Positions 7,201 to 50,583 of a stretch of 64,000 bases of DNA are shown piece after piece; position 1 is the stretch's first letter; each line of letters starts with the position of its first letter. Source of the DNA: a virus (lineage: Duplodnaviria > Heunggongvirae > Uroviricota > Caudoviricetes); the IMG/VR virus record IMGVR_UViG_2915331061_000005; one strand, written 5' to 3'. The translations under genes and the position numbers were made by a program. The notes below the pieces were generated by a model that did no database searches, was not told the DNA's origin, and saw nothing but the letters and a program-made list of their open reading frames with translations.

Positions 7201-7238
7201 CTCTCACGCTCCTTTGTTGTCTGCTCCTTCCCGTCGTG

Positions 7239-8099: not shown

Positions 8100-8129
8100 C
8101 ATTGTCAACCCCTTTTTCTTCTTTTTTCG

Positions 8130-8158
8130 TTGACTTAATTAACGCGCCGTGCTATTAT
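8130..8158 (+). promoter_or_regulatory. Sigma-70-type promoter (TTGACT, 17 nt, TATTAT) for the XRE repressor gene
   Basis: Near-consensus boxes with 17-nt spacer, ~27 nt before ATG 8185 and RBS AAGGAGGTG. Confidence 0.55.
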
Positions 8159-8184
8159 TATAGTAAAGGAGGTGAAACAAAGGT

Positions 8185-8667: not shown

Positions 8668-8723
8668 TTCTTCAACGTGCCGCTTCTGAGTGGCTGAAGA
8701 ATCACCAGTAAATCCGCGCAAAA

Positions 8724-8762
8724 AGAAAAAGCCCACCGGGGGACAGGCCCGGTAGGCTTTTT
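8724..8762. terminator. Bidirectional intrinsic terminator (A-tract, 13-bp stem, T-tract)
   Basis: AAAAAGCCCACCGGGggacagGCCCGGTAGGCTTTTT. Confidence 0.45.
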
Positions 8763-8797
8763 CGTGTATGCAAATTATTTTATGGAGGTATTATCTT

Positions 8798-9265: not shown

Positions 9266-9301
9266 AGCTCCACATTGTCTTTCTGCAAAGGTGGTGTCCC
9301 T

Positions 9302-10912
9302 ATGAAGAAACAACCAACCGGCGGCAAGCGTCTTGTTGCCTACTACCGCTACAGCGGCGGCAGTCATCAAACGGAGCAGTCCATTGAGGGGCAGCGCCGG
9401 GACTGCGAAACTTACGCCCGTATCCATGGCATGGTCATCCTGCATGAATACATTGACCGGCATATCTCCGGCAAGACGGACGACCGCCCGGAGTTTCAGC
9501 AGATGATCGCCGATGCTGGGAAAGGGATGTTCGACTATGTGATTTGCTGGAAAACAGACCGCATTGCCCGCTCCCGGTATGACAGCATCGTCTATAAAAA
9601 GAAGCTCCGTGACAACGGCGTGGAGCTACTCTATGCCGCAGAAGCCAACGTTGAAGGCTCCGGCGGTATCATCGTGGAGGGCTTGATGGAAGCCCTTGCC
9701 GAATACTACTCTGCCGAACTGGCCGAGAAGGTGCGGCGCGGTATGCGGGAAAGTGCCTTGAAGGGCAAGGCTATCGGCAGTTCCCGTCCCCTTGGTCTTA
9801 CCGTGGACAAGGATAAGAAGTATATCATCGACCCCGCCGGGGCTGCCGCCGTGCGGTATATCTTTGAGCAGTACGCCGCCGGGGCTGCGTCCTCTGCTAT
9901 CGTTGCACACCTGAATGAACAGGGCTTGTGCACCAGCCGGGGCAACCCGTTCAATAAGTCCAGCGTGGTGCGTATCATCCAAAACGAGGTGTATCGGGGC
10001 GTGTATGTCAGCCCCAAGTTTGACGTGCGCATTGAGGGCGCAGTACCGGCCATTATTGACGACGATCTATGGGAGAGGGCGCAGAAGATGTTTATTCGTA
10101 ACCGTCAGAGCCGTTCCCCGCGCAATGACCGCGCGGACTACATCCTGTCCGGCAAGCTGTTTTGTGGCGAGTGCGGCACTGCCATGAAGGGCGTGTCCGG
10201 CCACAGCAGCAACGGCGAGGTGTACTTCTACTACAGCTGTCCGTGCAAGGACTGCCACCGCCGGAACATCCCGAAGGACGAGCTGGAAGGTCTGGTAATC
10301 CGCACCGTCTGTAACGACGTGTTGCAGCCGGACGTGATGGATCGCATTGCAGACAGTGTGATCGAAGCCCAGACCGCCGAACTGAACCAGCCAAACCCGG
10401 AGAAGGAAGCATTGCAGCACGAGCTTGCCGACGTGCAGCGCAAGGCAAAGAATCTGCTGTCTGCATTGGAGAACGGCACCGCCGGGGCTATGCTGACCAA
10501 CCGCCTTGCCGAACTGGAACAGCAGGCCAACACGCTGTCCTATCAGCTGTCGTCGCTGGAATCTGAGCCGAAGTTCCCGGTCTTCTCCAAGGAAGAAGTT
10601 CTGTACCTGCTGGAACAGTTCCTCATTGCCCCCAGCGAGAAAACCAAGGCATACCGCCGCCGCCTAATCGACACCTTTGTCAGCAAGATCGAGGTGAGCA
10701 ACACGGAACTGACCATCTATTTCAACATTGCCGAGGAAGATTGTGGAAAAATGAAAAAAGCTCCCCAGTCGAACCAGCCCGAAGGCTGTTCGACTGAGAA
10801 GCAAATGGTCCACCTTGCACATCAACAAGCGAACTATTCCCTTTATGCGGCTTCCGGCTACTTTTCACTGGTTGAACACCAATTTTCGGCCCGTTTGTGG
10901 CGCACCGCATAA
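9302..10912 (+). CDS. Large serine recombinase (phage integrase)
   Basis: Resolvase catalytic domain (VAYYRYSGG...EGQRRDC), recombinase domain, zinc ribbon (CGECG...CPCKDC) and C-terminal coiled coil. ~65 % identical to 62456..64000. Confidence 0.85.
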   Translation: MKKQPTGGKRLVAYYRYSGGSHQTEQSIEGQRRDCETYARIHGMVILHEYIDRHISGKTDDRPEFQQMIADAGKGMFDYVICWKTDRIARSRYDSIVYKKKLRDNGVELLYAAEANVEGSGGIIVEGLMEALAEYYSAELAEKVRRGMRESALKGKAIGSSRPLGLTVDKDKKYIIDPAGAAAVRYIFEQYAAGAASSAIVAHLNEQGLCTSRGNPFNKSSVVRIIQNEVYRGVYVSPKFDVRIEGAVPAIIDDDLWERAQKMFIRNRQSRSPRNDRADYILSGKLFCGECGTAMKGVSGHSSNGEVYFYYSCPCKDCHRRNIPKDELEGLVIRTVCNDVLQPDVMDRIADSVIEAQTAELNQPNPEKEALQHELADVQRKAKNLLSALENGTAGAMLTNRLAELEQQANTLSYQLSSLESEPKFPVFSKEEVLYLLEQFLIAPSEKTKAYRRRLIDTFVSKIEVSNTELTIYFNIAEEDCGKMKKAPQSNQPEGCSTEKQMVHLAHQQANYSLYAASGYFSLVEHQFSARLWRTA

Positions 10913-36539: not shown

Positions 36540-38399
36540 TTAGATACCTCCCGAAAGCTGACGACGGCCCCGTGATTTCTTGACCGGCTGGGCAGGCGTT
36601 CCGTCTGCATCCGGTTTTTTCAGCACAGGGCGAGAAATAGCAAGAGCCGCGGTTGCGTAATTGCGCAAATCCAGCGGCTCGTTTCGTTTATGCTCTTTAT
36701 CTTTGATTTCCCAGTATTCTTTCAAATGACCCTTGACGAACCGCACCACTTTCTTCTCAGCTGTTAGGCCCTTGAAGTATTCTTCGGTGTAGCCTGCTTC
36801 CTCATTTGACGGGAAGTGGCAGTAGTTCGGGCCGGGCGTCTTGACTTCCAAACGCTGATAGATGGTCGTTTTGCCCGCATCAACGCCCAGAATGAACAGG
36901 TCTGCCCGAACACGATTGTTCTTGGACGGGTTGCGGATAAACGGCACTCCTGCGCCGCCCATGCCCTTAATGGCAAAGATGCGCCGGTTGAGCCGTTCCT
37001 TTGCAAACCGGTAAACTTCATCGGTGTGGTGTCCACCGGAATCAATGCAGGTCGCCAACAGCGGGTATGCCGTTCCGTCTGCCTTGTGCCATGTCCGAAG
37101 TAGAAAGTTGTCCAGATCGTCCCATACCTGATCCGAAAGCATATCGCCGAAGATTTTCTGGTAGCGAACGCCCCAGCTCTCTGTGCCCTCGCCCCAGCCG
37201 ACCACTTCAACTTCAAAGCGATCATCCTGCACGTCAACACCAGCAGTGAGGTACAGAACATCATCCGGCACCTCTGCGGCGTAGATTTCGCGGCGGTTGA
37301 ACAGCTCGATGTCCTCCAACTGAATGCCGCGTTCCTCCCACGTCTCGCCCAACTCTGTGTTCACCCAGACCTTCATTTGTTCCGGGTTGCCATGATCGAG
37401 GGCAATTTTCGCTTCGATGAACTTCGTCACGATCTCTTTCCAGCCAACAAAGGTTGAAGCCAGCGTGTTCAGGTGGAAGCCTCTGGATTCTGCACCGGGA
37501 TTGGCGGCAACATACTTACCGTATTTCCCCTGCTCTTTCCAGCGGTATTCATTTGATACACAGCCGCATTCCCTGCAGACATATCCAATTCCCTTGTCGA
37601 GGTCGTCTTTGTCGAACTTGACATTCTCCCAAAGGAACGGCTGGTATGCCCCACATTCCGGGCAAGGCACGTTCCATTCTTCTTGTGTAGAAAGTAGGTA
37701 GGCGTCCTCAATGCGGCTGTCTCCCTTGATGGTGGGCGTGCTGACCATGACGGTCTTGTAATCCCAAAAGGTCGTCTGGCGTTTCTTTGCCAGATCAAGA
37801 GGGTCGCCCTCTGTTCCTGCGCTCTTGGGGTAGCGGTCGATCTCGTCCGCCAGCAGCACTTTGATGGGGCGGCTGGCAAGGCTCGACGGGCTGTTTGCGC
37901 CAACAATGGTGATGTGCCCGCCGGGGAAGTTCTTCTTCATGACGGTATTTCCAGCGTACCGGCTTTTGGTATCCACCAGACCGGTAAGCCGGGGCGTGTC
38001 CCGGATCATGGGAGCGATACGGTCTTTTGAGAGCGTCTGCCCCATGTCAAGGGTAGGCTGCATACACATCACCGGGCAGGGTGCATAGTCCATGTAGTAG
38101 CCCAGCGGGTTCAGAATGAAAGCATCCGTCTTTCCGATCTGCGCCGCCGACATGACGACGACAGAACGGACGTGAGGATCACCGATGGCATCCATGATAG
38201 CCCGCTGATACGGGGCTTTCTCGGTGTGCCACCGCCCCGGTTCTGCGCTGGATTCTGCGGACAACACCCGGTATCTGTCCGCCCACTGGCTGACTGTCAG
38301 GGGCGGCGGCGGGCGTAGTTTGCTTAGAACCTCGGCGAACAGTTCCACGGTCTGCGGTTCAAGTTTCACGATCCGTTTTTTCTTCACGTTTCGGTTCAC
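36540..38399 (-). CDS. Terminase large subunit (lambda gpA family)
   Basis: 619 aa. N-terminal ATPase region (VVMSAAQIGKTD Walker A-like) and nuclease C-terminus. Confidence 0.85.
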   Translation of the reverse strand: MNRNVKKKRIVKLEPQTVELFAEVLSKLRPPPPLTVSQWADRYRVLSAESSAEPGRWHTEKAPYQRAIMDAIGDPHVRSVVVMSAAQIGKTDAFILNPLGYYMDYAPCPVMCMQPTLDMGQTLSKDRIAPMIRDTPRLTGLVDTKSRYAGNTVMKKNFPGGHITIVGANSPSSLASRPIKVLLADEIDRYPKSAGTEGDPLDLAKKRQTTFWDYKTVMVSTPTIKGDSRIEDAYLLSTQEEWNVPCPECGAYQPFLWENVKFDKDDLDKGIGYVCRECGCVSNEYRWKEQGKYGKYVAANPGAESRGFHLNTLASTFVGWKEIVTKFIEAKIALDHGNPEQMKVWVNTELGETWEERGIQLEDIELFNRREIYAAEVPDDVLYLTAGVDVQDDRFEVEVVGWGEGTESWGVRYQKIFGDMLSDQVWDDLDNFLLRTWHKADGTAYPLLATCIDSGGHHTDEVYRFAKERLNRRIFAIKGMGGAGVPFIRNPSKNNRVRADLFILGVDAGKTTIYQRLEVKTPGPNYCHFPSNEEAGYTEEYFKGLTAEKKVVRFVKGHLKEYWEIKDKEHKRNEPLDLRNYATAALAISRPVLKKPDADGTPAQPVKKSRGRRQLSGGI

Positions 38400-38485: not shown

Positions 38486-38989
38486 TTATCCGGTTTCTTC
38501 TCCGTCTTGTTCATCTTCTTCATCATCCTTCGGCGGCTGCAACGCCACCTGATAATTAGAAAATTCCTCCATGATCTCATAGAGGGAACTTTGCAATAAG
38601 TCCATGATCTTGCCCTCATCACCGTCCAGCTTGGCAATGTTTGCAGCCAACTTGTTGGGCAGGGCAAGGAGCCTTGAGCGCAGGTTCATAACAACGGTGG
38701 TCATGCCAACCGTGATGTCAGATTTCCGGTACAGTTCCCCATTGCGAACTTTATTCTCGGTTTCGGCGGCGATCCGTTTTTCCTTGGTCAGCTTCGCCCG
38801 TTCCTCGTTGAGGTCAGCTTTGCCGCCCTCGTCGCCCCGCAGGTAGTTGATGTACCGTCGGACGCTGGAACGCAGGTCGTAAAGGCCGGGGGCCTTTTCT
38901 TCCAGCACGCCCTCGTCTCGGAGCTGCCGCACCCGGCGTTCGGACAGGTCGAGATACTGTGCAACGATCTTAGTCGTGTACAGTTTCAT
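38486..38989 (-). CDS. HTH DNA-binding packaging protein (Nu1-like winged helix), possible second terminase small component
   Basis: N-terminal KIVAQYLDLSERRVRQLRDEGVL HTH, coiled coil, acidic tail. Confidence 0.4.
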   Translation of the reverse strand: MKLYTTKIVAQYLDLSERRVRQLRDEGVLEEKAPGLYDLRSSVRRYINYLRGDEGGKADLNEERAKLTKEKRIAAETENKVRNGELYRKSDITVGMTTVVMNLRSRLLALPNKLAANIAKLDGDEGKIMDLLQSSLYEIMEEFSNYQVALQPPKDDEEDEQDGEETG

Positions 38990-39731
38990 CCTCTGTCCCT
39001 CCCTCCGGGTCTACATCCACCTCACCGGTCGCCCGCGTCTTTGCAATGTCAAGGCGTTCCAGTTCCAGAGCGTACCGTTTTTCAAATTCTTCCTGCTGAC
39101 GGATTTGTGTGGTCAGGGAAATAATTCTGCCGGAGACCTTGTTCAGGGCCTCCCGCAGCTGGGTCACTCGAACAAAGGCACTGTCCTTGTTATCCATGAC
39201 CATCTTCTGCACAGCTCCGTCCGCCTGCTTCCCGTCTTTGTCCTTTCCCGGTTTTCGCATATCGGTGATGGATGCAGTGAACAGCTTTTCCGGGTCGCAG
39301 CTTTCATACTCTGCGATCCGTTCCATGATGTGCCGCTGCTGAATCCGAAGCAGCTTCAACTCATAAATGTTGTTCTCGTTTGCACCGGTCGGCATTTGAT
39401 CCAGCCAGTCCCGTTCCTCTTGGTTCAAACGTTCAAGGTGAACCGTGCTATATGCACCGTCCTTCTCTGCGTTGGTGTTTCCGTTCGGCGCACCGCCGCC
39501 GGGATTGCCCTTGGCATTCCTCTTGCCCCGGCTGTTTTTGTTTCCGGGCTGTCCCCCGCGCTTGCGCTCCACCGCATCGTCCCATTGGTCAATGCGTTTC
39601 CAGTTGCGGACGGTTCCGTATGTCACGCCCAGCTTTTCGGCAAGGTCTTTGAGATTTACTTTCTCGCCCGACCGCCGCCGCTTGATGTACTCAGCCTTGG
39701 CGGTGTCGCGCTTGTCGTTCCGCTTCGGCAT
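38970..39731 (-). CDS. Terminase small subunit
   Basis: LGVTYGTVRNWKRIDQWDD...GGQPGNKN motif typical of phage small terminase subunits. Confidence 0.6.
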   Translation of the reverse strand: MPKRNDKRDTAKAEYIKRRRSGEKVNLKDLAEKLGVTYGTVRNWKRIDQWDDAVERKRGGQPGNKNSRGKRNAKGNPGGGAPNGNTNAEKDGAYSTVHLERLNQEERDWLDQMPTGANENNIYELKLLRIQQRHIMERIAEYESCDPEKLFTASITDMRKPGKDKDGKQADGAVQKMVMDNKDSAFVRVTQLREALNKVSGRIISLTTQIRQQEEFEKRYALELERLDIAKTRATGEVDVDPEGGTEDETVHD

Positions 39732-39971
39732 CCGGCATCACTCCTGCACCCCGTTTCCAAAATACACGCAAAAGAAAAAGCCCCACGACGGAATGTCATG
39801 GAGCTTCGCACCTATCACTGTACCGATTATAGCAGGAAAAAGGCATCACGATACATCATTTTGAAAATTTTCTTCAAAAAATCCCCCTAAATTTTTTCAG
39901 ACCCCCTTCTGGGGAAGGGCAAAAATCCGTTTATACCTAGAAAATTTTCGGGCTTTCGGACCCGTAAAGGA

Positions 39972-40550
39972 TTGAAACGCCGCTCCCAGTACCTACGGGC
40001 GCGGTGCGGGCGGGCCGTGGTCATCGGCCCAGCGCCGGGCGGCGGGCGCGGGGTCATTGCAAGAGGCGGCGCGGCGGGCCGGGCAGCGCCAGCGCGGCGG
40101 CGATCCGGCAGGCGGGCGGGGCCAGCGGGCCAGCGATCCGCCCCAAAGCAGGCCGGGCGCGGCGGCGATCTGGCAGGCGCGGCAAGGCGGCGGGCGGTGC
40201 TGGCTGCTGCATGGCTGGCAGTGTGCAGGCGGTGCAGTAGGGCGCGGCGGTCTGCTGTATGCTGGCATAGGGCAGGCGGGCGGCGCTGGCATGGTATGCA
40301 GCAGGCAGGGCGGCGGCGGAATGCCCTGTGCAGCCGGTGCGCGGCGGGCGCTGGCTGCTGCAGGCGGTGCAGTGTGAGCGGCCCGGCAGAGCGGGCAAAA
40401 GGAAAAAAGGCCGGGCGGCGGCGCGTTGTGCGTCGGTCGTCCCGGCCTTTTCTGCTGCTGTTGTCGCCCCGGTGCAGGGCTGTTTTTGCCGTTTGCCGGA
40501 GGGGTCAGATTCTTCACTTAACGGCATATCGCTGCAGTGGTAAGGGTTAA
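39972..40550. repeat. Extremely GC-rich (~75 %) non-coding island with degenerate direct repeats (GCGCGGCGGCGATC(C/T)GGCAGGCG x2, GCTGGCTGCTGCA...GGCGGTGCAGT x2); candidate cos/pac packaging region
   Basis: Immediately upstream of the packaging genes. All ORFs here are Arg/Gly/Pro-rich artefacts. Confidence 0.45.
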
Positions 40551-40604
40551 CTAGGCTATATGCCGCCCTAGTAACCCCCTATAGTCCCCCTTCTTCCCCG
40601 CTTT

Positions 40605-40835
40605 TCACGGTTTCACGGAATCAGCCCCCGGCAAATCGTCCAGCGTCAACGGCTGGCCCTCTTTTGCCATACGTTCCCGCACAGCCTGTAAAATATATCC
40701 TTGCAGACTTTGCCCCGCAACCGCGGCGGCGGCGCGAATCGCTGCCCCCTCTTGCTTGAGCGGCCAAACTGTAATGCGGTCACACTTTGCGTTGTATTTA
40801 TCGTTGTTACGTCTTTTTGCGTCAGATACCGGCAT
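40605..40835 (-). CDS. Ribbon-helix-helix (CopG/Arc-like) DNA-binding protein
   Basis: N-terminal KRRNNDKYNAKCDRITVWPLKQE beta-strand then two helices. Divergent from the repeat-laden promoter. Confidence 0.5.
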   Translation of the reverse strand: MPVSDAKRRNNDKYNAKCDRITVWPLKQEGAAIRAAAAVAGQSLQGYILQAVRERMAKEGQPLTLDDLPGADSVKP

Positions 40836-40886
40836 ATTATTACCCCTTGCTTATTTATTAAATATAATATAGCACAACCCAGCAGA

Positions 40887-41018
40887 CACCGCAACGTGCA
40901 AATTGCACAACACCGCAACGTGCAATTTGTGCAGAACGCCAAAAACACCGCAACGTGCTTGACATGCGACACGTTGCGGTGCTAGAATACAGCCACGGCA
41001 AGCGACACCGCAACGTGC
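40887..41018. repeat. Array of five 13-bp repeats CACCGCAACGTGC (four direct, one inverted) spanning the early promoter
   Basis: Copies at 40887, 40911, 40946, ~40968 (inverted) and 41006. Confidence 0.7.
40959..40988 (+). promoter_or_regulatory. Early promoter (TTGACA, 18 nt, TAGAAT) embedded in the repeat array
   Basis: Consensus -35 and near-consensus -10. One inverted repeat lies in the spacer. Confidence 0.5.
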
Positions 41019-41053
41019 TAGCAAGCCGAATAAGCCGAAAGGAGAAAAGCCGC

Positions 41054-41161
41054 ATGAATAAGCACTTTTTCGAGCTGCCAAAAGCCGTCAAGCGTGCCGT
41101 TTGGGCCGCGCTCATGGCTGAATGGGCAAAGAAAAAAGCCGCCAACCGCACCACCGGTTGA
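41054..41161 (+). CDS. Small basic protein (35 aa)
   Basis: RBS GAAAGGAGAAAAG, first gene of the early operon. Confidence 0.35.
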   Translation: MNKHFFELPKAVKRAVWAALMAEWAKKKAANRTTG

Positions 41162-41321
41162 CAGCTCGCAAGATGGGATTTGAACAGCTCATCTTGCAAT
41201 GATTTTACCAGTTTTCGCCGGTAAAGTCAAGCGGACACTTTGCAAGGGCTGCACCGCTCAACAAAGCAACCCATGCCCACCACCCCGCCGGGGTGATTCA
41301 AAAGAAAAGAGGTTTTGAAGT

Positions 41322-41711
41322 ATGACCACATTCGACCGCAAAATAAACCAGATCGCCGCCCGCCACGGGTGGAGCATCGAGAAACAGCCCCGCGCCGCTG
41401 TCCCTTGCTACATCATCGCCGCCCCAACTTATGAGGATACCGGGAAGATCGTTGCCGTTCTGAACCGCTGCAAGGGCTTGCACCATGAAACATTGACCCC
41501 GATTCACTATGAATCGTGGGCGGTCAAGGTGTATGACGCCGGACAGATCGCCGCATATCGGGAACGCGAACGGCAAAAAGCCGCCCTTGTTGATGCTTTC
41601 TATATGGCATTGAAAGCCAACGGCGGCGACCAGAACGCCGCGAAAGCTGCCCAGCGTGAAAAGGCGGTGCAATGGAACGCCGTCGAAGTGTTCAATGAAA
41701 TTTACGCATGA
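41322..41711 (+). CDS. Hypothetical early protein
   Basis: 129-aa ORF with RBS. Confidence 0.45.
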   Translation: MTTFDRKINQIAARHGWSIEKQPRAAVPCYIIAAPTYEDTGKIVAVLNRCKGLHHETLTPIHYESWAVKVYDAGQIAAYRERERQKAALVDAFYMALKANGGDQNAAKAAQREKAVQWNAVEVFNEIYA

Positions 41712-41824
41712 CCCCCGGATACCTTGACGGGCCGCACCACGAAAAGCGACCCGATCCCACGCCCCGACAATAGCCGGGGAAAAGCACGAAAAGCCACACC
41801 ACGAAACGAAAAGGAGAAACAACC

Positions 41825-42169
41825 ATGAAACGAATTTTGACCGCCGCCGCACTTTCCGCCGCGCTGCTGTCCAGCGCACCCCGCGCCGCTGCCGCCTGTC
41901 CCTACAAAGTCGGCCCTTTGGGGCGGTATATCGCCCCGGCCATTGTGCAGGGCATGACCGCCACCGACGACGGGAACGCCGTTGAAGTCTGGTGCACCGA
42001 CGCGCTGGACGGTGACGACTGGTTTTTTACCGTGGACAACGAAACCGAATTGAAGATTTACAGCCGTGTAAATCTGGTGATCGACGCCAACGGCACCCCG
42101 GACGACTTCACCGACGACCGCGTTATTGATGCCCTGTATTGTCACGATTGCGACGGGATCGACGATTGA
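41825..42169 (+). CDS. Secreted small protein (signal peptide, Asp-rich)
   Basis: MKRILTAAALSAALLSSAPRAAAA signal peptide. Confidence 0.5.
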   Translation: MKRILTAAALSAALLSSAPRAAAACPYKVGPLGRYIAPAIVQGMTATDDGNAVEVWCTDALDGDDWFFTVDNETELKIYSRVNLVIDANGTPDDFTDDRVIDALYCHDCDGIDD

Positions 42170-42187
42170 ACGAAAGGAGCGCACAAC

Positions 42188-42400
42188 ATGAAAACCCTTG
42201 AAGAAATCCGCAACGAATGCCGCAACGAAAACCACGCCGCCCGCCGCCTGTTGTCCGCCGGGTTCCGGCTTGAGGGGTGGGACATGAACACGGGGCGGCG
42301 GATCGTCGCCCGCATCACGAACGAGAACACGAACGACGAACAGCGCGCGTTCTACGAGTTTCCCGACTATCAAACCGCCGCCGCTGAACTTCTCGCATGA
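42188..42400 (+). CDS. Hypothetical early protein
   Basis: 70 aa with RBS GAAAGGAG. Confidence 0.4.
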   Translation: MKTLEEIRNECRNENHAARRLLSAGFRLEGWDMNTGRRIVARITNENTNDEQRAFYEFPDYQTAAAELLA

Positions 42401-42504
42401 TCCCCGCCGGATACCTTGACGGGCCGCACCGAAAAGCGACCCGATCCCATCCACCCGGCCCCGCCGGGAAGAACCACAACAAAAATTGAAAGGAAGTATT
42501 TACC

Positions 42505-43446
42505 ATGACGAACAATCAGATCATCCGCAACGAAGCCGCCCGGCTTGACCCTGCCACCCTGCACGCCATCGCCACCGCGCACCACACCCCGGACGAGATC
42601 GCCGCCATTGCCGCCGCTTGCAAGACCACCGACGAGAACGGCAACGAACAGCCCGCCACCGTGGCCGATGTCGAAATCATGCTTGCAGCCGACGAGCTGC
42701 ACACGTTCGACCACTGGAAGAAAGAGGGTAAGAGCGTCAAAAAGGGTGAAAAGCATCTTGTTTGCTGCTACCTCTGGAAGTACACCACGAAGCCCAGCAA
42801 AGAGCAGCGAGAAAAAGCAGCGGCAGAGGGCAAGGAAGCGGCCCCCGATCCGCATTACTACCCCACGAAATCGCACCTGTTCAGTTGCTTACAGGTTGAA
42901 AGCAGCAAGCCCGCCCCGGCTGGCCGGTTTGGATCGACCGCTGCAATCATCGAGTATAACAAGAAGCTGGCAGCCGAACGGAAAGCAGCGAAAGCCGCCG
43001 CCGAAAAGGCAAAGGCCGAAGCCGCCGCCCCGATCATCACCGAAGAACACCACGAGTTGCCGGAACTGGTGCACGCCGATCCGCTTCCCACGAAAAAGGC
43101 CACGAAGCGCACCGCCAAAAAGGCCCCGGCAAAGAAAGCCGAAACGAAACCCGCCGGGCCAGACATGGAAGAGTTGAAAAACGCTTTCGTCAAGAACTAT
43201 TCCCGCCTGTACCAGACCGACGACGACCACGAAAGCGGCGAGTTTTACGACGCCGTGGACAAGTTCGACGAAATGAGCGCCAACAATGCCCAGTTTACCG
43301 CCACCGTCCAGAAGTTCAATAAATACATGGGCGACCTTATCAGCAGTGACCGCGAAGCCGCCGCGTTTGTGATGGCCCTTGACGATCTGGAAAAGGCAAA
43401 GACCCCCGAAATGGTTCCCACCGTGCAGCAGCTTTGCTTTGCATAA
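42505..43446 (+). CDS. Hypothetical early protein with Lys/Ala-rich linker
   Basis: 313 aa. Central KAAKAAAEKAKAEAAAP low-complexity linker. Confidence 0.45.
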   Translation: MTNNQIIRNEAARLDPATLHAIATAHHTPDEIAAIAAACKTTDENGNEQPATVADVEIMLAADELHTFDHWKKEGKSVKKGEKHLVCCYLWKYTTKPSKEQREKAAAEGKEAAPDPHYYPTKSHLFSCLQVESSKPAPAGRFGSTAAIIEYNKKLAAERKAAKAAAEKAKAEAAAPIITEEHHELPELVHADPLPTKKATKRTAKKAPAKKAETKPAGPDMEELKNAFVKNYSRLYQTDDDHESGEFYDAVDKFDEMSANNAQFTATVQKFNKYMGDLISSDREAAAFVMALDDLEKAKTPEMVPTVQQLCFA

Positions 43447-43566
43447 CACGAAACGGAGACCCCAGCAGGGCCGCACCGCTCAAAGCGGCCCCGCCCCACT
43501 TCCCACCGGCACCCCGCCGGGGGATCGTCACGAAACACGAAAAACGAAAACAGGAGGCTTGAATTT

Positions 43567-44052
43567 ATGTCTTGCATGATGCTTTCCCCCGCCCACATCG
43601 CCACCGTTGCGCACGGTCTGGCGTACCTGCTCAATCAATCCGAAATGTGCCAGCTTTCCGCCGCCGACGAATTGCGCGACGCTCTGGGCGCTTGCAGATA
43701 CCCGCACGATTTTCTGTATGACGACCGCCGAATCTACCCCGTTCTGTACCGGCACAACGAAGCCGCGTATGAAGGGCGCTATAAGGCAGAGCCGGACGAA
43801 ACCGACGAAGTGCCAGCCATGCCGGACAATGTGCCGCACCTGCTGCACCGTCTGGACTACAACGAGCATTATTTTCTCGATGCTGATTTCTTCAAATTTC
43901 TGAAGCTGCTTGACTGCTACATTTACCAGTGCGAAGAACAGGCCACGGCAGACACGAATTTACAGAAAGCGCTTGTAAAGACTTCAAACCACTTGTACGC
44001 ATTCGCCGCCCAGCAGAATGCAGCATACAACGCCGCGCCGTGGTGCATCTGA
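43567..44052 (+). CDS. Hypothetical early protein
   Basis: 161 aa with RBS CAGGAGG. Confidence 0.45.
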   Translation: MSCMMLSPAHIATVAHGLAYLLNQSEMCQLSAADELRDALGACRYPHDFLYDDRRIYPVLYRHNEAAYEGRYKAEPDETDEVPAMPDNVPHLLHRLDYNEHYFLDADFFKFLKLLDCYIYQCEEQATADTNLQKALVKTSNHLYAFAAQQNAAYNAAPWCI

Positions 44053-44144
44053 TCCGCGCCGGATACCTTGACGGGCCGCACCGTAAAGCGACCCGATCCC
44101 AGCCGAAAGGCACAACACGAAACGCGAAAAGGAGCAAACGAATT

Positions 44145-45065
44145 ATGACAACATACTATCCCATCAACGAAAATCTGGCCCGTGCTTCCCACGATATGCG
44201 CAGCATGAGCACCTATCCGGACGGCTATGCAACCAGAGAATACCGTGCCAGCGTGGACAAAGCCGCCGCTCTGGTCGAAGAAAAGAAGCAGAAAGTCAGC
44301 CCCTACTATCACGAAAAGCTGGACGCGCTTCTTGACAGCTACGCCCGCCGCCTTGCACAGTGGACGGACGACCACAACCGGAACGGCGCAAGCTGCCCCT
44401 CTGTGCTTGTGTGCGGTGCTGGCAACTTCCCGGTGCGGAAGAAGCAGAAGCAGAACGCCCGCGAGGATACGCTTTGGCACGAATATGAAGAAATCGAAGC
44501 CATCTTGACGAAAATCAAGGCGGTTGGCACCGGCCCCGTTGATCTGGCCGACCCCCACGCCCGCGAACTGCTCACGGATCAGCTGAACAAAGAGCAAGAC
44601 CTTCTCGAATATTGCAAGGGTGCCAATGCCTATTACCGGAAGCACAAAACCTTGCGCGGCTATTCCAACATGAGCGACGCGGCAGCCGACGCGCTCACCA
44701 ACCCGGACGCCTTTTCAATGAGCCTGTACCGCAAGCCCTACGGCGATTTTGAGTTAACCAGTATCCGCGGCAAGATCAAGCGGATTCAGACCCGCCTTGA
44801 CGAACTCGACAAGGTACAGGCCGCCGCTGCATCCGGCCCCGTTGAAGATCAGCACGACGGCTACACCTACCGTGAGAACAACGAAATCATGCGCGTGCAA
44901 TTCATCTTTCCCGGAAAGCCGGACGACGAAACCCGCGCCATGCTCAAAGAGAACGGTTTCCGGTGGGCACCCAGTCAGGGCGCTTGGCAGCGCCAGCTTA
45001 CCGCAAACGCCAAATATGCAGCGCACCGTGTCATGGAGTTTCTGGACGGCAACGAAAACGAATAA
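44145..45065 (+). CDS. Hypothetical early protein
   Basis: Internal start MTTYYPINEN (RBS AAAGGAGCAAACG) of ORF 43929..45065. Confidence 0.45.
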   Translation: MTTYYPINENLARASHDMRSMSTYPDGYATREYRASVDKAAALVEEKKQKVSPYYHEKLDALLDSYARRLAQWTDDHNRNGASCPSVLVCGAGNFPVRKKQKQNAREDTLWHEYEEIEAILTKIKAVGTGPVDLADPHARELLTDQLNKEQDLLEYCKGANAYYRKHKTLRGYSNMSDAAADALTNPDAFSMSLYRKPYGDFELTSIRGKIKRIQTRLDELDKVQAAAASGPVEDQHDGYTYRENNEIMRVQFIFPGKPDDETRAMLKENGFRWAPSQGAWQRQLTANAKYAAHRVMEFLDGNENE

Positions 45066-45171
45066 TAAAAGCGGACACCCCAGCAGGGCCGCACCGATTC
45101 AAAGCGGCCCCGCCCCATCTTCCCGGCATAAATGTCGGGAACATCACGAAAACGAAAAGGAGCTATGAACC

Positions 45172-45429
45172 ATGACAGCCAAACAGCAAAGCACCGAATC
45201 CGGCGGCGGTCTGCGCACCGTCACCCTCACCGCTGACCAGTGGAACACCCTGTATTTCTACCTTCTCACTTCCACGAAGTACCGCAACGGTGAAATTGAA
45301 GCGTGGGAAAGGCTGGCCCTTGAAACGAACGAGGACGGTTCCCCAAAGTTCATCCACGCCGCCGACAATGCGCGTTATCTCCGGGATCAGGAAAAGACGC
45401 TGCACGAAATTGCGCAAAGCATCTGCTAA
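45172..45429 (+). CDS. Hypothetical early protein
   Basis: 85 aa with RBS AAAGGAGC. Confidence 0.4.
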   Translation: MTAKQQSTESGGGLRTVTLTADQWNTLYFYLLTSTKYRNGEIEAWERLALETNEDGSPKFIHAADNARYLRDQEKTLHEIAQSIC

Positions 45430-45532
45430 CAGACCGCTCCGCCGGGGAAAATAGGAGAATTGACTTCATTTTGTAGTCGGTTGAATGCCGATCCACTGCC
45501 CCGCCGGGGTGAATCACGAAAGGACGAAACGA

Positions 45533-45721
45533 ATGTACTACTTCATTTACTGCAAAGGCCCCAACGAAAAGCGCTTCACGCTTTGCAATCCATGGAAAGG
45601 CACACGCGGCATGGGCAAAGTATATGCGCCGCGCTTCCTCAAGGATCAAGCCGACTATGCCGTTGCATGGATGGCCGAGCACAACCCCGGCTTTATCTTC
45701 CAGCGCCGCCCGGCACGCTGA
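45533..45721 (+). CDS. Small hypothetical protein
   Basis: 62 aa, internal start MYYFIYCKG. Confidence 0.3.
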   Translation: MYYFIYCKGPNEKRFTLCNPWKGTRGMGKVYAPRFLKDQADYAVAWMAEHNPGFIFQRRPAR

Positions 45722-45752
45722 ACATCACCACCACGAAAAGGAGCAACGAACC

Positions 45753-46070
45753 ATGACAACCAACGAACGCTTTCTCTCAGTCCTGCACAGGATCACTTCC
45801 TGCCGCCACTTAGCCACCGTCAACATAACGATCTGGAACAGACGCATTGAAGTCCGGCACACCGTTTTCGATGAAATGTACATCCTGCGCAGCTTTCCCC
45901 TGCCCAACACCCACAACGAATATTGCGTCTGCATGGCGGCTGCCTGCCGGTGTCTGTCCGACAAGCTGCTTTCGTGGGCAAGCGAGTACGACCACGGCAA
46001 CGACGTTCTGAACAAGCAGTACGACACTGTGAACAAAGCCTTTCGCAAGCGCTTAGAGGAACAAGAATGA
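45753..46070 (+). CDS. Hypothetical Cys-containing protein
   Basis: Internal start MTTNERFLSV with RBS AAAGGAGCAACG. Confidence 0.4.
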   Translation: MTTNERFLSVLHRITSCRHLATVNITIWNRRIEVRHTVFDEMYILRSFPLPNTHNEYCVCMAAACRCLSDKLLSWASEYDHGNDVLNKQYDTVNKAFRKRLEEQE

Positions 46071-46293
46071 CCCGTGCCCCGGTTCCATGCCGGGGCATCT
46101 TGTGATATACTTTCACTAACGAAATTGGACTTTTCAAGCACGAAAAGTTCAATTCCAGCAACGAATTTGCAAAAAAGGGGGCATTTTTACGAACGAAGTC
46201 GAATTTTTTGCACCTTGGCGTCTGGTTGCCAGTTTTGCCGACGGCACACGCGCCACGTTCGACGGACTGACCGAGGAACAGGCCCACGCCGCA

Positions 46294-46551
46294 ATGGAAG
46301 CTGCCCAGACCGAGCACGGCGACATTGGCTATTGGAACCGTGTCACGGATGTAAACTATGAGGACGGCCAGTATTGCGGCACCCTGCAGGAACCGCCCAC
46401 GGTTCATGTTGTGGATTTTTCCGGGTATGACGGGCCGCTGGACGAAAACGGCTTTCCTGTTGGCCTGCCGAACGAAATCGCCGAGTACATGAAGCAGCAC
46501 GGCGAACCGCCCACCGTTCCGAAAATCATCATCAAGAAAAACGAACCATAA
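46294..46551 (+). CDS. Hypothetical early protein
   Basis: 85-aa ORF, last gene before the terminator. Confidence 0.35.
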   Translation: MEAAQTEHGDIGYWNRVTDVNYEDGQYCGTLQEPPTVHVVDFSGYDGPLDENGFPVGLPNEIAEYMKQHGEPPTVPKIIIKKNEP

Positions 46552-46566
46552 ACGCACGAAATCCCT

Positions 46567-46612
46567 CGACGGAATTACCCGCCGGGGGATTTCTGTTTTT
46601 GACGATTCGCAA
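46567..46612 (+). terminator. Rho-independent terminator ending the early operon
   Basis: GAAATCCC-loop-GGGGATTTC followed by TGTTTTTG. Confidence 0.55.
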
Positions 46613-46799
46613 GTTTGTTTTTCTGAGCGGTTCGGAGGTTTCGCGGAAGCCCTTCATTCTGCACGCGCATAAATTCGCTTCATTCTCTACCCTATAGTGT
46701 CTTTCCGGCACGAATTAAGATCGCTGAAGTTCGATTCTAAGGGCCTGTTTTTGCAGGTTTTCTGTCAAAAATCAGGCATAAGCCATTTTACAGCCCCTT

Positions 46800-47300
46800 T
46801 TAATCGCGCGCGTCATACGCGCGTGAGAGCAGTTCTTCGACCATCGGGACTTCATCCAGCATGGAACCCAGAACGACCAGCGCGAACTTTTCCCACCGCT
46901 GGGCTGTGATCTCTGTTTTTCTCAGTTCGCGGGCTATGGTTTTCCAGCCTTTTTGTAACGACGGATCACTGTAGACATACCGCCCGCACAGGATCGTTTT
47001 GTAACGACTGTTCAGCCGGTCTAATTGCCCCCGGATTGTTGTCTGATCCGCACGGAGAACATCCTGCCGAACACGAAGTTCATTTTCCCGGCGCTGGCAC
47101 TCCACATCATCGGCCAGTTTCACAGCCAGCGACGCGGTACTATCTCCCGGCGTGCTGCCGTGCGGCATACCGTCCATAGCAATGCCCTTGATGGGATTGT
47201 AGCGATCTCGCAGTTCTGCCAGCTCAATGTTGACATCATCAAGCTGCGCTTCAATCCCGCCAAAGTAGCGCAAAATCATTTTCGTTTCTTCTGCCTGCAT
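46800..47300 (-). CDS. Putative transcriptional regulator with C-terminal sigma-70 region-4-like HTH (possible RinA/ArpU-type late activator)
   Basis: C-terminal GWKTIARELRKTEITAQRWEKFALVVLG resembles a sigma region 4 HTH. Assignment tentative. Confidence 0.3.
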   Translation of the reverse strand: MQAEETKMILRYFGGIEAQLDDVNIELAELRDRYNPIKGIAMDGMPHGSTPGDSTASLAVKLADDVECQRRENELRVRQDVLRADQTTIRGQLDRLNSRYKTILCGRYVYSDPSLQKGWKTIARELRKTEITAQRWEKFALVVLGSMLDEVPMVEELLSRAYDARD

Positions 47301-47447
47301 TTTGCCCTCCTACGCTCCGTACCGTCAAAATTCTGTCGAGAAGATAGGCCCTGCACCGGGCACACGCGCAACCTCCGTACTGCCGCCGGTCATCTGGGCG
47401 ACACACCGGCCCAGTTTGGTATACGCCACATACTCCCCGTCTTTTGC

Positions 47448-47942
47448 TCATTCGAGGAACTGTTCATAGTTTTTTCTGGCTTCTTCCACGGTGCTGTTGA
47501 TCTGGGCACGATCATAGCCCATAGAATCCAGCGCTTCGATGAAGAACCGGATCACGAGATCACCAGCGGCACGCCGTTCGGCCAGCGCGTCTTTTTCACG
47601 CTGTTTGCGCGGGTATTGTCCCGCCGGGAGGACAAACGGCTTATCCAGCATCGGTGCTGTGCGCTCTCTCAGCTTCTCGCGGGCTTTCGGCTGCCCGTAG
47701 GCGCTCATTTCAACCGTGTATACCTCTGCCCTGTGGTTCATTTCCGTGCAAAGCCGCTCCTGCTTGTCCCGGTCAAAATCCAACGTGTCATTGGCTGCGA
47801 TCATGGTGCAGTAGCTCACCACCTCGCCAACGGCCTGCCGATTCAGCGTCAGGTTCTTTCTGGTGTTTACCTTTTCGGCGCACCGGGCAAAGGCATTCTG
47901 TGCCATATGCATAGACACTGCCCTTGGGATTCTTCTGCTCAT
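47448..47942 (-). CDS. Hypothetical protein
   Basis: 164-aa ORF. Confidence 0.4.
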   Translation of the reverse strand: MSRRIPRAVSMHMAQNAFARCAEKVNTRKNLTLNRQAVGEVVSYCTMIAANDTLDFDRDKQERLCTEMNHRAEVYTVEMSAYGQPKAREKLRERTAPMLDKPFVLPAGQYPRKQREKDALAERRAAGDLVIRFFIEALDSMGYDRAQINSTVEEARKNYEQFLE

Positions 47943-47948
47943 GATGTT

Positions 47949-48458
47949 TCATCCTTTCCTTTCGGTCTGTTGGGCGCACTTCTTCCATGCTTTGATTTCT
48001 GCTGCAGTATCAGGGGTAATGTGCTCCACAAAGCGCCAGCCCCGCGGCTCCGCCACAAGGTCGATGAATATACGGCGGCGGTGGATGTAATCGCGCTGCT
48101 GCCGCCGGGTGAATTTGCTTTTCACCTCTACAACCTCAACTGTGCCATCTGCATAAGTCAGCACAAAATCCGGGGTATAGTGCATCGCCGGTAGTTTCAC
48201 ATTGCCGTATTCTTTTTCGGGCAGCATGGTAAACCTGCGGTGCGATTCCACCTTCACGATCTCCCCGCGCTGGACTTTTGGCAGAATCATTCCCATGTAG
48301 TAGTCGTACTCGCCCCTGCTGTCAAACTCCCGTCCTGTTTTCTTGGCGGCTGCAGCCACGGCTTCCAGCGTCGGTGCTTTTGCTCTGCATCTGGCCGCAA
48401 TCTGTGCTTCCGCCTGTGCCCGATACTTTGGTGGCAGGTCAGAAAGTTCCATCCTCAT
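47949..48458 (-). CDS. DUF1064/PD-(D/E)xK nuclease-like protein (possible Holliday-junction resolvase)
   Basis: Start MRMELSDLPP with CAGGAGGAA RBS. D..E.K-type motif (TPDFVLTYADGTVEVVEVKS). The upstream 119 codons of the ORF-track entry are rejected. Confidence 0.45.
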   Translation of the reverse strand: MRMELSDLPPKYRAQAEAQIAARCRAKAPTLEAVAAAAKKTGREFDSRGEYDYYMGMILPKVQRGEIVKVESHRRFTMLPEKEYGNVKLPAMHYTPDFVLTYADGTVEVVEVKSKFTRRQQRDYIHRRRIFIDLVAEPRGWRFVEHITPDTAAEIKAWKKCAQQTERKG

Positions 48459-48460
48459 AC

Positions 48461-49321
48461 TCAAGGCCGGTTCCTCCTGTTCTGCTGCATCCCAGTCTCT
48501 TTGCGATATAGGCGCACGATCAGGTGCCGGGTGTTGTTGCCGGTGATTATGGGTTCGCAGTAGTGCAGGGTGTATCCGGGGTACATCTTCTCCCAGAATG
48601 CACGATCTTCCAGACGGTTCTCGCAAACATCTTTCAACTTGGTGCGGCTCATTTTCCCATCGTTCGGGCGGGGCATTTTCGGCGGTTTCAGCCCGCGGCT
48701 CTGCCGCCAATGGCGCTTGCACCTCACATTCTTCATGATGTACTTTGCAAGGCTCGTGATGTAGCCATGATCGAAGTGTAGAGGTTCGCAACGGGCCATG
48801 CCGCGCCCGCTCCACGCTTCCTCTACCATTTCACGGGTCAGACCGTAAACGCGCTGCATAATGACATGGTGATGGTGCTTTCCCACCCACACCCCGTCAA
48901 CATACGTCGAGTATTCATGCACGACGATCCACTTCGGGTGCCGAATGCCTTTTTTATCGCACATCCGGTATAGCTTTTTCATGGCGGCGGAAAAATCCTT
49001 ATCCACACGCTTTGTGTCCGCCGGGTCGGGCCGGTGTTCATCGTCATAGGTGTATGTAACAGAATAATCGCTCTTGTGGAAGTTGCGCTGAACCAACAGC
49101 TCTAAATACCGTCCACTTTTTCGCAAATTGTACGCTTCCTTCGCAATGGAGCTTGCCAGCTCTTTTTTCTTGCGGGTGCTGGCCTTGTGCTGCTGTTCCG
49201 TGATCTCGAAAAAATCCACCTGCATGGTGTCAGCCGTGGCATAGTCTTTGCCGCAGATAAATTTTTGCTCTCGTACTCTGAAACCCGCGGTCATGCTCTC
49301 CACGTCCTCCTTTCCGTACAC
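48461..49321 (-). CDS. Replication initiation protein (Rep_trans/HUH rolling-circle type)
   Basis: HUH-like GKHHHHVIM and Y-motif LAKYIMK. 286 aa. Confidence 0.5.
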   Translation of the reverse strand: MYGKEDVESMTAGFRVREQKFICGKDYATADTMQVDFFEITEQQHKASTRKKKELASSIAKEAYNLRKSGRYLELLVQRNFHKSDYSVTYTYDDEHRPDPADTKRVDKDFSAAMKKLYRMCDKKGIRHPKWIVVHEYSTYVDGVWVGKHHHHVIMQRVYGLTREMVEEAWSGRGMARCEPLHFDHGYITSLAKYIMKNVRCKRHWRQSRGLKPPKMPRPNDGKMSRTKLKDVCENRLEDRAFWEKMYPGYTLHYCEPIITGNNTRHLIVRLYRKETGMQQNRRNRP

Positions 49322-49607
49322 GTCATGGAATTTTCTGAATCTTGAACCACAAACACGAGAAGGGAACGATGCAGAGGAACAACACCGGGCCGCGTTCCCT
49401 ACGATCCTGCTTCCGGCAAGCCATCAGAACGCTGCCCTCGTTTTCCCTCTGCACTCCCTTTCCCCGCCGGGGGAAAGCTCCTGTTTTTCTCTGATTTCTC
49501 AGAATGTCCCTTAGTTTAGCTCCGATATACAAGCCCCTTGCCGCCTCGTCAGGGCGGCAATTTAACGACGGACGCTCTTTATATATAAGGTAGAGGGCTT
49601 GTCTTGC

Positions 49608-49760
49608 TTATTTCAGCAGGGCGAATTTGAACCAATCCGGCAGGTCGGATGCTGCAATAAAATACTTTACCACCAGCACCACGGCAAGAATAATCACCGG
49701 TGCCAGCAGGTACAGCCAGCCGATAGCGTAAGCGCCGAACTCACTTTTCTTCTTTTTCAT
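49608..49760 (-). CDS. Small membrane protein
   Basis: Start MKKKKSEF then hydrophobic helix. Confidence 0.35.
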   Translation of the reverse strand: MKKKKSEFGAYAIGWLYLLAPVIILAVVLVVKYFIAASDLPDWFKFALLK

Positions 49761-49895
49761 CACTATCTTCCCTTCCTTCCCACACAGGGCAGCTATCTTC
49801 CGGGTCTGTGAAATCCGCCCGATGCTCAGAATTTCCATTGAAGCACACCCATGAAAAGTTATCATGCCATGCGCAGGTGAAACACTCTTTTTCCA

Positions 49896-50360
49896 TCACT
49901 CACGTTCCTCCCAGTTCCAGCAGGAAGCTTCCCGGCCTGTCACGGGCTGAGAATGATGTTTGTTGAAACACGTCCCGTCCTGCAAATGCCACCTGCAAAA
50001 TTCACAGCTTTTGTGTGAAGTGACTTTTGCGCCGCACTCTGGGCAGTGCTTAAACTTGTACTCGCAAAGTTCTTTCTCCCCGTCGTCCGGGTCGATTTTG
50101 ATTTGCTTCCAGTCCTCAACGTGAATGCCGCACTTGTGGCAAATAAATTCGTCGCAGTCTATGTAGTCCCGGTTCTCGTTGTATGTCAGCGGTTGCAGGC
50201 TCTCCGGGGCAATGGTCGGTTCGGCATTCAAACTGCCCTCGATCATCTGCACTACACTGGTTTTGATTTTCCCGTGTGTCAGCTCCCCTTTCAGTGCATA
50301 CTCTATGTTCTTGAGTACCTGCATGAAATGGTTTGCATCAACCAGACGTTTTTCTTTCAT
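49896..50360 (-). CDS. Cys-rich zinc-binding hypothetical protein
   Basis: CHKCG...CPECG...CEFC motifs. Confidence 0.4.
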   Translation of the reverse strand: MKEKRLVDANHFMQVLKNIEYALKGELTHGKIKTSVVQMIEGSLNAEPTIAPESLQPLTYNENRDYIDCDEFICHKCGIHVEDWKQIKIDPDDGEKELCEYKFKHCPECGAKVTSHKSCEFCRWHLQDGTCFNKHHSQPVTGREASCWNWEERE

Positions 50361-50583
50361 TTTCTTTTCCCGCTTTCTTTCTTGGCGTTCGCTTCTTCTT
50401 TGGCAAATCCGGTATCGTCACCACAATATCCCTTTGTTTCTCCATTTCCGCCGGGATTGCCTCGACCAGACTTTTGAATTTTTGCAAGGTTTGAACCTCC
50501 GTCGCCGCGAAAATGAACTGCGCCAGTTCTTCCGGTGTTCCCTGCTGGACGGAATGACCGTCCGGGTATGTTGTGATCGTCAT
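50338..50583 (-). CDS. Hypothetical protein
   Basis: 81 aa. Confidence 0.35.
   Translation of the reverse strand: MTITTYPDGHSVQQGTPEELAQFIFAATEVQTLQKFKSLVEAIPAEMEKQRDIVVTIPDLPKKKRTPRKKAGKENERKTSG

Follow-up and report, generated by a model that had tools for sequence, protein, structure and literature searches.

A stretch of DNA of 64,000 nt from a tailed virus (Caudoviricetes; IMG/VR record IMGVR_UViG_2915331061_000005), hereafter called the window, carries upstream of its terminase genes a non-coding block of extreme G+C content, hereafter called the island. The island is best explained as the outer (right-end) arm of the phage's cos region, a non-coding element that acts at the DNA level. 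It is an undescribed, lineage-specific and hypervariable flank of cos, and its persistence is interpreted here as the outcome of selection for composition, polarity and motif content rather than for exact sequence. As to its function, I tentatively favour an accessory array for DNA packaging, a proposal that I would put at rather less than an even chance. The element as a whole is best explained as a temperate myophage of Faecalibacterium of the lambda type, with a gpA terminase and 5'-overhang cos ends. A prophage resembling Faecalibacterium phage FP_Toutatis spans approximately 9815-64000 of the window, with 94-98 % identity over the aligned segments, and phage Lelie is 99.9 % identical to the window through the terminase genes (99 % for TerS). 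All the genes that flank the island are on the - strand (Table 1). The papers on Toutatis and Lelie contain no description of the island.

An earlier inspection of the DNA, referred to below as the sequence-only reading, had singled out the interval 39740-40560 as a GC-rich (about 75 %) repeat island distinct from its flanks. The compositional anomaly is confirmed: a block of 491 nt, 39980-40470, has a G+C content of 76 % (G 46 %, C 30 %, A 11 %, T 12 % on the + strand), and its 400-nt peak, 40001-40400, reaches 77.8 %, with a z score of 5.7 relative to the window mean of 53.9 % (sd 4.2), while no other part of the 64 kb exceeds 63 %. The anomalous block thus lies inside the interval, but the latter was drawn too wide, since its left 240 nt are AT-rich (44-46 % G+C) and contain the leader of the packaging operon and cosN. 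The degenerate direct repeats that had been reported exceed those found in shuffled sequence: the best ungapped direct repeat scores 20, as compared with 11.6 ± 1.4 (maximum 17) in 100 dinucleotide shuffles, and 26 10-mers are repeated, as compared with 3.4 ± 2.7 in the shuffles. Two repeat copies 65 nt apart can be matched over 48 nt, of which 75 % are identical, and in their 23-nt core 22 of 23 positions agree; Tandem Repeats Finder returns a period of 33 nt with 2.1 copies. ATC-centred motifs (GGTCATCGGCC, GGCGATCCGGCAGG and GGCGATCTGGCAGG) are embedded in runs of GGCGGCG and GGCGCGG. No further copy of the island was found within the window. The terminator-like hairpin that had been noted at the end of the island (approximately 40405-40451) is real on both strands, with folding energies of -36.7 kcal/mol (z -4.8) on the + strand and -31.1 kcal/mol (z -5.6) on the - strand; it is however best read as the terminator of the neighbouring gene, which encodes a 76-aa ribbon-helix-helix (RHH) protein, and most likely ends the - strand transcript of that gene and bounds the island.

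The position of the island with respect to the genome end comes from Lelie. PhageTerm analysis of virus-particle reads predicted cohesive ends with 5' overhangs for this phage, and its record was rearranged to the predicted site (PMC11792537). Position 1 of the Lelie record corresponds to position 39962 of the window and its last base (53400) to position 39963, so that the ends predicted for this relative map inside the interval, at 39962|39963, rather than elsewhere. The junction lies 6 nt from the centre (39956/39957) of a dyad, which implies that symmetric nicks would leave a 12-nt 5' overhang, as in lambda; on the - strand this overhang would read 5'-GGTCCGAAAGCC. The dyad belongs to a 32-nt core, ATACCTAGAAAATTTTCGGGCTTTCGGACCCG, that was compared among relatives of the window. 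Thirty-three of these were found in IMG/VR by means of TerS1, the identity of which goes down to 62 % over three clades (A, B and C), and the upstream regions of 36 sequences were aligned. Thirty-four relatives extend far enough to include the core; it shows almost no variation among them, whatever the clade, and is located 230-236 nt from the terS start codon. The sequence-only reading was therefore right to expect cos in this interval, upstream of Nu1/A-like genes, and TerL is of the gpA type; the GC-rich repeats, on the other hand, are not the cleavage site, cosN being located in the AT-rich left part.

Both flanks of the core contain conserved features. On the right, the approximately 20 nt that separate it from the octamer box CAGTACCT differ among clades; the box may be a cosQ-like flank. 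On the left, the spacer between terS and cosN contains three or four ATCA[CT] motifs at conserved positions, in a single orientation and with none reversed, and this orientation is also that of the motifs of the island. This terS-side spacer would make a better cosB candidate than the island. The succession of a candidate late promoter and a strong leader terminator before terS suggests antitermination control, and a Q-type antiterminator is annotated in Toutatis approximately 7.5 kb from the leader terminator. Weak Rfam matches to PyrR and ctRNA correspond to the hairpin of this terminator. Recombination junctions between clade A and clade B fall exactly at the right edge of the core (39962|39963; loci L004, L005, L008 and L026), and both combinations occur, indicating that the core is a crossover point between the late-gene and right-end modules. 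When 185,579 representative genomes were searched for the core, a single match was obtained, in a prophage of F. intestinale, and the matches in IMG/VR all belong to the same phage group; neither collection contained a satellite with the core but without a terminase. The literature search yielded no independent data on termini. A sequence that overlaps the core, cgggctttcggacccgtaaaggattgaaac at 39951-39978 (+), is similar to the 3' portion of CRISPR repeats of type I-C. A solitary CRISPR repeat or an RNA anti-CRISPR was rejected, as clades B and C keep the cos core and the CAGTACCT box but have unrelated sequence in place of the GGATTGAAAC segment. Since the sequence overlaps cosN and its GGATTGAAAC tail varies among clades, the likeness is taken as a coincidence.

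The island was surveyed in 21 full-length loci from the three clades, 16 of which were used for motif analysis. It is found in the same place in all 21, with a length of 340-735 nt and a G+C content of 68-76 %, and in all 21 G (39-47 %) exceeds C (27-32 %) on the strand equivalent to the + strand of the window. The shortest of these islands have 340 nt; in an additional locus, L041, the island measures roughly 300 nt by eye. In clades A and C, the island begins 0-10 nt after the conserved cos core, according to a 60-nt sliding G+C criterion; in the window, it begins approximately 30 nt past the core, right after the CAGTACCT box. Clade B has an additional stretch of 150-200 nt between cosN and the island, with 11-12 A-tracts phased at 10.5 bp (coherence 0.82), an arrangement that amounts to a predicted intrinsic bend. 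The A-run, hairpin and T-run at the end of the island were located automatically in 13 of the 21 relatives, and the A-run and hairpin are visible by eye in the others that were printed. The sole relative without an island, L027 (IMGVR_UViG_3300014790_000054), has also lost cosN and the late leader: its terS1-terS2-terL block is 84 % identical to that of clade B, while the region upstream of terS is replaced by a gene for a 365-aa lipoprotein-like protein. It is likely a defective remnant. The sequence-only reading had named variability or absence of the region in close functional phages as something that would refute it. It proved to be highly variable, Lelie sharing only the first 240 nt of the island with the window, and never absent.

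This variability is concentrated in a zone, 40000-41100, after which identity returns to approximately 100 %. The window has the same island variant as L006, while Toutatis has that of L009 and of the first 240 nt of Lelie; since the variants recur in independent assemblies, they represent haplotypes and not sequencing errors. After these 240 nt, the Lelie island continues with other modules, which places a mosaic junction inside the island. In clade B and in Lelie, the island contains 2-5 copies of a near-palindrome, CCTATATAGCTATGTAGG, within units of 79-117 nt, the number of which varies, and three CCACGGAAAA repeats ahead of the terminator. The palindromic module TCCTATATAGCTATGTAGGG was not found outside these islands. 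In IMG/VR, 14 of 32 contigs break inside the island when approached from the terS side, and six more do so from the other side.

What is shared by the islands is the presence and the orientation of short motifs. TCATCGG occurs 41 times in the forward orientation and never in the reverse one over the 16 islands, approximately 98 times the number expected from composition. CATC is present in 1-12 copies per island, versus 0-2 for its complement, and GGCGGCG and GGCGCGG are over-represented 9- to 13-fold. The one-orientation motifs TCATCGG and GGCGGCG are present in 16 of 16 islands. A role of Dam methylation sites was considered and dropped, because GATC is merely mildly enriched and is apparently one variant of the ATC-centred box.

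No coding signal was detected. Open reading frames (ORFs) of 71-192 aa cross the island on both strands, as expected by chance at 76 % G+C. None of them has a Pfam or PHROG match; the period-3 signal is 1.5-5 in the island versus 3.5-17 in the neighbouring genes, without coherent periodicity; 1-nt indels separate the window from relatives that are otherwise 99.6-100 % identical; the ORFs read through the terminator hairpin; and no frame is conserved between clades. In spite of the existence of these ORFs and of a coding sequence called by glimmer3 in the Toutatis record, the probability that the island is a protein-coding gene of biased composition is therefore close to nil, and the statement of the sequence-only reading that it contains no credible ORF stands. 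The Toutatis call (AUV56763.1, 'hypothetical protein') corresponds to 40296-40544 (+) of the window, and orf79 and orf80 of Lelie are similar cases; all these calls lie in the island and over the terminator, on the strand opposite to the RHH gene. The deposited gene calls in the island are probably artefacts of high G+C content. It is also most improbable that the island encodes a G-rich non-coding RNA or an R-loop transcript, produced from the + strand and ended by the hairpin. Such a transcript would account for the terminator and T-run that follow the island on the + strand, and some clade-B inserts carry a possible + strand promoter right of cosN (TTGCCG-16-TGgTAGAAT). However, neither the window nor clades A and C were found to have a + strand promoter facing the island, and no island contains one. 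No Rfam family reached the gathering score in the island when the whole window was searched, or an E value of 10 or less in 39700-40700; folding of the island RNA shows no excess of stability relative to shuffles (z -1.2 on the + strand, 0.0 on the - strand); G-quadruplex motifs number 0-1 per island, as in shuffles; and the turnover of the island is too quick for a fold to be kept.

A second polar motif is relevant to the discussion of function. The octamer CCCGGCGG, the commonest octamer of the phage, is present in the window in 30 copies on the - strand and none on the + strand, with approximately 1.8 expected per strand from dinucleotide shuffles. The bias is independent of gene strand, as 13 copies lie within 41285-50448, where the genes are on the + strand. 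The copies are clustered: 13 of the 27 in the phage part are found in the 10.5 kb nearest the right genome end (p = 7e-4). When the genome is oriented as in the virion, the strand with the octamer has its 3' end at the right terminus, which is the orientation in which Chi sites are active. The bias is kept in relatives (23:0 in Toutatis) and is absent from Faecalibacterium phages with Gam-like end-protection genes, namely Lagaffe (6:4), which also has a recombination module, and Epona (1:2). The octamer occurs in none of the 12 best-ranked of 87 papers in the literature search. It looks, from its distribution, like a Chi-type or other polar motif.

According to the packaging proposal, short ATC-centred boxes in a single orientation, such as TCATCGG(G/C), numerous and loosely spaced within GGCGGCG and GGCGCGG, would be bound or sensed by the terminase complex during translocation or by the small-terminase proteins with their helix-turn-helix (HTH) motifs, and through the array the nucleoprotein complex responsible for cutting cosN would be built or arrested. 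Such an array would allow variation in its copy number, in its exact sequence and in its distance from cosN. If packaging runs from terS to terL, as in lambda, the island would be the last DNA packaged. From the sequences I infer the binding of a protein to the island, the identity of this protein as the terminase, and the direction of packaging. This proposal is ranked first because the island abuts cosN, hence the predicted terminus of a genome whose TerL is of the gpA family; because of the clade-B bend, which would be of the kind found between the cleavage and binding sites of packaging signals; because of the polarity of the motifs and the tolerance of copy number and spacing; and because the recognition helices of the HTH motifs of TerS1 and TerS2 are invariant between clades, like the cos core and the shared motifs. 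The retention of the island in every full-length relative and the failure of the coding and RNA explanations also speak for it.

Several observations weigh against a packaging array. Lambda has its cosB on the other side of cosN, and the island exceeds cosQ in length approximately 70-fold. It diverges rapidly: between the window and Toutatis, there are no mismatches in 1860 nt of terL, four in the 1246 nt of both terS genes and one in the 231-nt spacer, but 24 mismatches and two 1-nt indels in 400 nt of the island (6 % versus approximately 0.1-0.4 % in the flanks). Lelie, L005 and L008 combine a TerS of the window type with island modules of the clade-B type; island modules are therefore exchanged regardless of TerS type, and no specific island sequence co-evolves with the terminase. 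In Clostridium phage Saumur, the nearest outgroup, where both TerS-like genes are also present and TerL is 56 % identical, only an AT-rich spacer of 177 nt is found in place of the island, and no island is found in the more distant gpA-terminase phages Lagaffe, Shimadzu and Taranis. Finally, the placement of cosN at 39933-39964 depends on one PhageTerm prediction for a relative and on sequence conservation, and no metagenomic contig ends exactly at the cos core.

Comparison with known systems gives partial likenesses only. As in lambda, TerL is of the gpA family, a phage with 99 % identical TerS (Lelie) has predicted cohesive ends with 5' overhangs, a partly two-fold-symmetric nick region lies upstream of small-terminase genes that are transcribed away from it, and accessory DNA is found on both sides of cosN. 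In lambda, however, the R sites of cosB and a bend induced by IHF lie between cosN and Nu1, whereas here the large array is on the other side, so that its repeats fall outside the cosN-terS interval that characterizes cosB; on the side of the array, lambda has cosQ, of approximately 7 bp, as compared with an island of 0.3-0.7 kb. Lambda cos is not known to contain a block of 70-76 % G+C or to be hypervariable. Among headful-packaging phages, SPP1 has pacL and pacR boxes with intrinsic bends, and the pac site of P1 contains hexamer repeats, TGATCA/G. In these systems, several short boxes flank the terminase cleavage site with bent DNA in between, which the clade-B A-tracts call to mind, and the GATC- and ATC-centred boxes of the island are loosely reminiscent of the P1 repeats. 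By contrast, SPP1 and P1 package by the headful mechanism while cos is predicted here, and their arrays are tens of bp long, conserved and not GC-rich. Repeat-rich non-coding leaders also exist at the first-injected end of T5 (the injection stop signal region) and T7 (the left-end promoter array). The island is likewise a non-coding repeat-rich stretch at the end that presumably enters first, and is followed by early genes that point inward; it differs in that it contains no promoters, and in that T5 and T7 have terminal repeats and not cos ends. The last comparison is with the lambdoid phages LLS and MD8 (PMC12315714), which share with the present phages G/C-rich oligomers in one orientation and the lack of an annotated recombination module. 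The octamer CCCGGCGG, with its 30:0 bias and right-end cluster, matches that pattern; the motifs of the island are oppositely oriented, the octamer avoids the island, and the Chi sites of LLS and MD8 are spread over kilobases of coding DNA rather than gathered in one non-coding block.

A real, if lesser, possibility is that the island is an end-processing and recombination zone. It would be the first DNA met by a host helicase-nuclease of the AddAB or RecBCD type entering at the free right cos end and, being located between this end and the first correctly oriented polar octamer, would provide both a buffer of dispensable DNA and a crossover region rich in microhomology, the hypervariability being the trace of degradation and of re-copying from co-resident phages. 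This would fit the excess of divergence in the island, the fact that the variable zone stops just before the first octamer (41285), the mosaic junctions at cosN and within the Lelie island, the differences in tandem unit number, and the orientation and right-end clustering of the octamer. Toutatis has no annotated recombinase or Gam (PMC5883640), and there is a precedent in lambdoid phages that lack a Rec module and whose right end carries a cluster of oriented Chi sites (PMC12315714). What this explanation does not account for is the 76 % G+C, the G-richness of one strand and the single orientation of the motifs: a buffer requires no special composition, GC-biased repair gives no strand asymmetry, and the octamer is a candidate Chi only. 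The same turnover, with its 1-nt indels, its tandem duplications of 79-117-nt units and the breaking of assemblies, would also be produced by a selectively neutral minisatellite, that is, slippage-prone GC-rich junk at a module boundary, and the lack of sequence-specific conservation past short motifs and of an island in more distant relatives points the same way. This is doubtful, since phage genomes are compact and deletion-biased and the island is nevertheless retained in all 21 full-length relatives, with a TerS identity of just 62 % between some of them, never with less than 340 nt (L041, by eye, excepted), and with constant G over C bias and motif orientation. Neutrality is hard to square with such universal retention and constant polarity.

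Two further hypotheses attach significance to the motifs themselves. One is that the island is a Chi-like cluster that tames the host nuclease, given that oriented G-rich oligomers lie near the right cos end of a Rec-less phage, as in LLS and MD8. Its motifs GCGCGG, GGCGCGG and AGCGG would resemble known Chi sequences of Firmicutes. This is very unlikely. When the genome is drawn with terS at the left, the C-rich strand is the one with its 3' end at the right terminus; the G-rich motifs are consequently on the strand that has its 5' end there, which is the inactive orientation according to the rule of PMC12315714. Moreover, in its genome-wide orientation the octamer is absent from 16 of 16 islands, and the excess of reversed near-matches to it (82 versus 7) is a consequence of the (GGC)n bias and does not count as separate evidence. 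The other hypothesis, unlikely as well if not to the same degree, takes this opposition of orientations at face value: the island could be a polarity-reversal element that signals a stop or a convergence to a DNA motor able to sense direction, by analogy with the polarity switch of KOPS at dif. The octamer would be read one way, co-directionally with presumed packaging, and the island motifs alone would oppose it, just before the terminal cosN; the motor could be the terminase arriving for the terminal cut, or AddAB degrading the concatemer tail toward the first packageable unit. In some relatives, the island contains the octamer itself in exact reversed form.

Table 1. Features of the cos region, the island and their surroundings. 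Positions are those of the 64,000-nt window, except for the insert found in relatives.
Feature	Position	Strand	Remarks
TerL, large terminase, lambda gpA family	36540..38399	-	Pfam GpA_ATPase E 3e-80, GpA_nuclease E 2e-93
TerS2, second small-terminase-like protein, 167 aa, N-terminal HTH	38486..38989	-	PHROG 57 (terminase small subunit) E 5e-36
TerS1, small-terminase-like HTH protein, 253 aa	38970..39731	-	Pfam Phage_terminase E 6e-11; PHROG 1889 (terminase small subunit) E 4e-65
terS-cosN spacer	39732..39932	-	near-identical between clades
Leader terminator hairpin ahead of terS	39807-39777	-	-20 kcal/mol, z -4.3
Candidate late promoter, extended -10 TGcTATAAT	39826-39834	-	predicted by reading of the sequence
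Inverted repeat CCCTTC-N4-GAAGGG	39904-39919		in terS-cosN spacer
cosN core, 32 nt	39933..39964		dyad CGGG-N8-CCCG at 39949-39964; placed from Lelie record ends and conservation
Phased A-tract insert	about 20-200 nt right of cos core		L012, L016, L020, L041, L060 (clade B); absent from window
Conserved octamer box CAGTACCT right of cosN	39987..39994		kept in all three clades (36-region alignment)
GC-rich island proper, non-coding G-rich array of degenerate direct repeats	39995..40398	+	e.g. 40083-40130 and 40148-40195
Bidirectional intrinsic-terminator hairpin	40399..40456	both	A-run, GGCCGGG...CCCGGCC stem, T-run
RHH-like regulator, 76 aa	40605..40835	-	transcribed toward island; weak Pfam ParD/TacA matches
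ACACCGCAACGTGC repeats, five copies	about 40880-41030		around early promoter; likely operators of the 76-aa RHH protein
Early promoter	40959-40988	+	+ strand gene block runs inward from 40955
RAGATH-5 matches	41231-41286, 41715-41766, 42407-42456, 43453-43505, 44059-44108, 45071-45124	+	block transcribed inward from right genome end
CCCGGCGG copies, phage part	9834, 9876, 10479, 20301, 23659, 29388, 34955, 37918, 38477, 39496, 41285, 42255, 42461, 43151, 43514, 45439, 45501, 46579, 47621, 48102, 49018, 49464, 50448, 54280, 58816, 62314, 63039	-	
CCCGGCGG copies, left flank	695, 6595, 7271	-	

The region between the island and the early genes, 40605-41040, is a mosaic regulatory module in which the N-terminal half of the RHH protein and the repeats that surround the early promoter are swapped jointly between phages: in the position of the ACACCGCAACGTGC repeats of the window, Toutatis has CGGTACAGGG and Lelie GCATGATTCATGC. 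This joint replacement fits a repressor with its operators. The possibility that the island is a binding array for the RHH protein was examined and rejected. The window and Toutatis, whose islands are 94 % identical, differ in the N-terminal half of the protein and in the operators, and the module types of the island pair with two different RHH types; since one changes while the other stays, the RHH protein is unlikely to be the island binder.

Further into the genome's right end, six matches to RAGATH-5 (Rfam RF02685) exceed the gathering score, with one located in every gap that separates the small + strand ORFs; several of them are directly followed by a palindrome, CCCCGCCGGGG, that contains the polar octamer. 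At the other extremity of the window, the left flank (1-9800) is not host chromosome but another mobile element. Its genes include a cytosine methyltransferase that is 81 % similar to a Toutatis gene, a repressor of the XRE type (8185-8667) and, at 9275-10912 (+), a second large serine recombinase.

Beyond lambda and a few model phages, cos sites are poorly defined, and the phages of gut Firmicutes are almost unstudied experimentally. In a genus of phages that is prevalent in the human gut, the island marks a point of module exchange. It also has practical consequences, as it breaks short-read assemblies (20 IMG/VR contigs end inside it) and attracts spurious gene calls. The octamer CCCGGCGG, for its part, is a specific sequence that can be proposed as Chi or polar motif in Faecalibacterium. 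A dedicated chromosome-end array that is defined by its composition and evolves fast would constitute a new type of accessory element, possibly involved in the termination of packaging or in the protection of ends.

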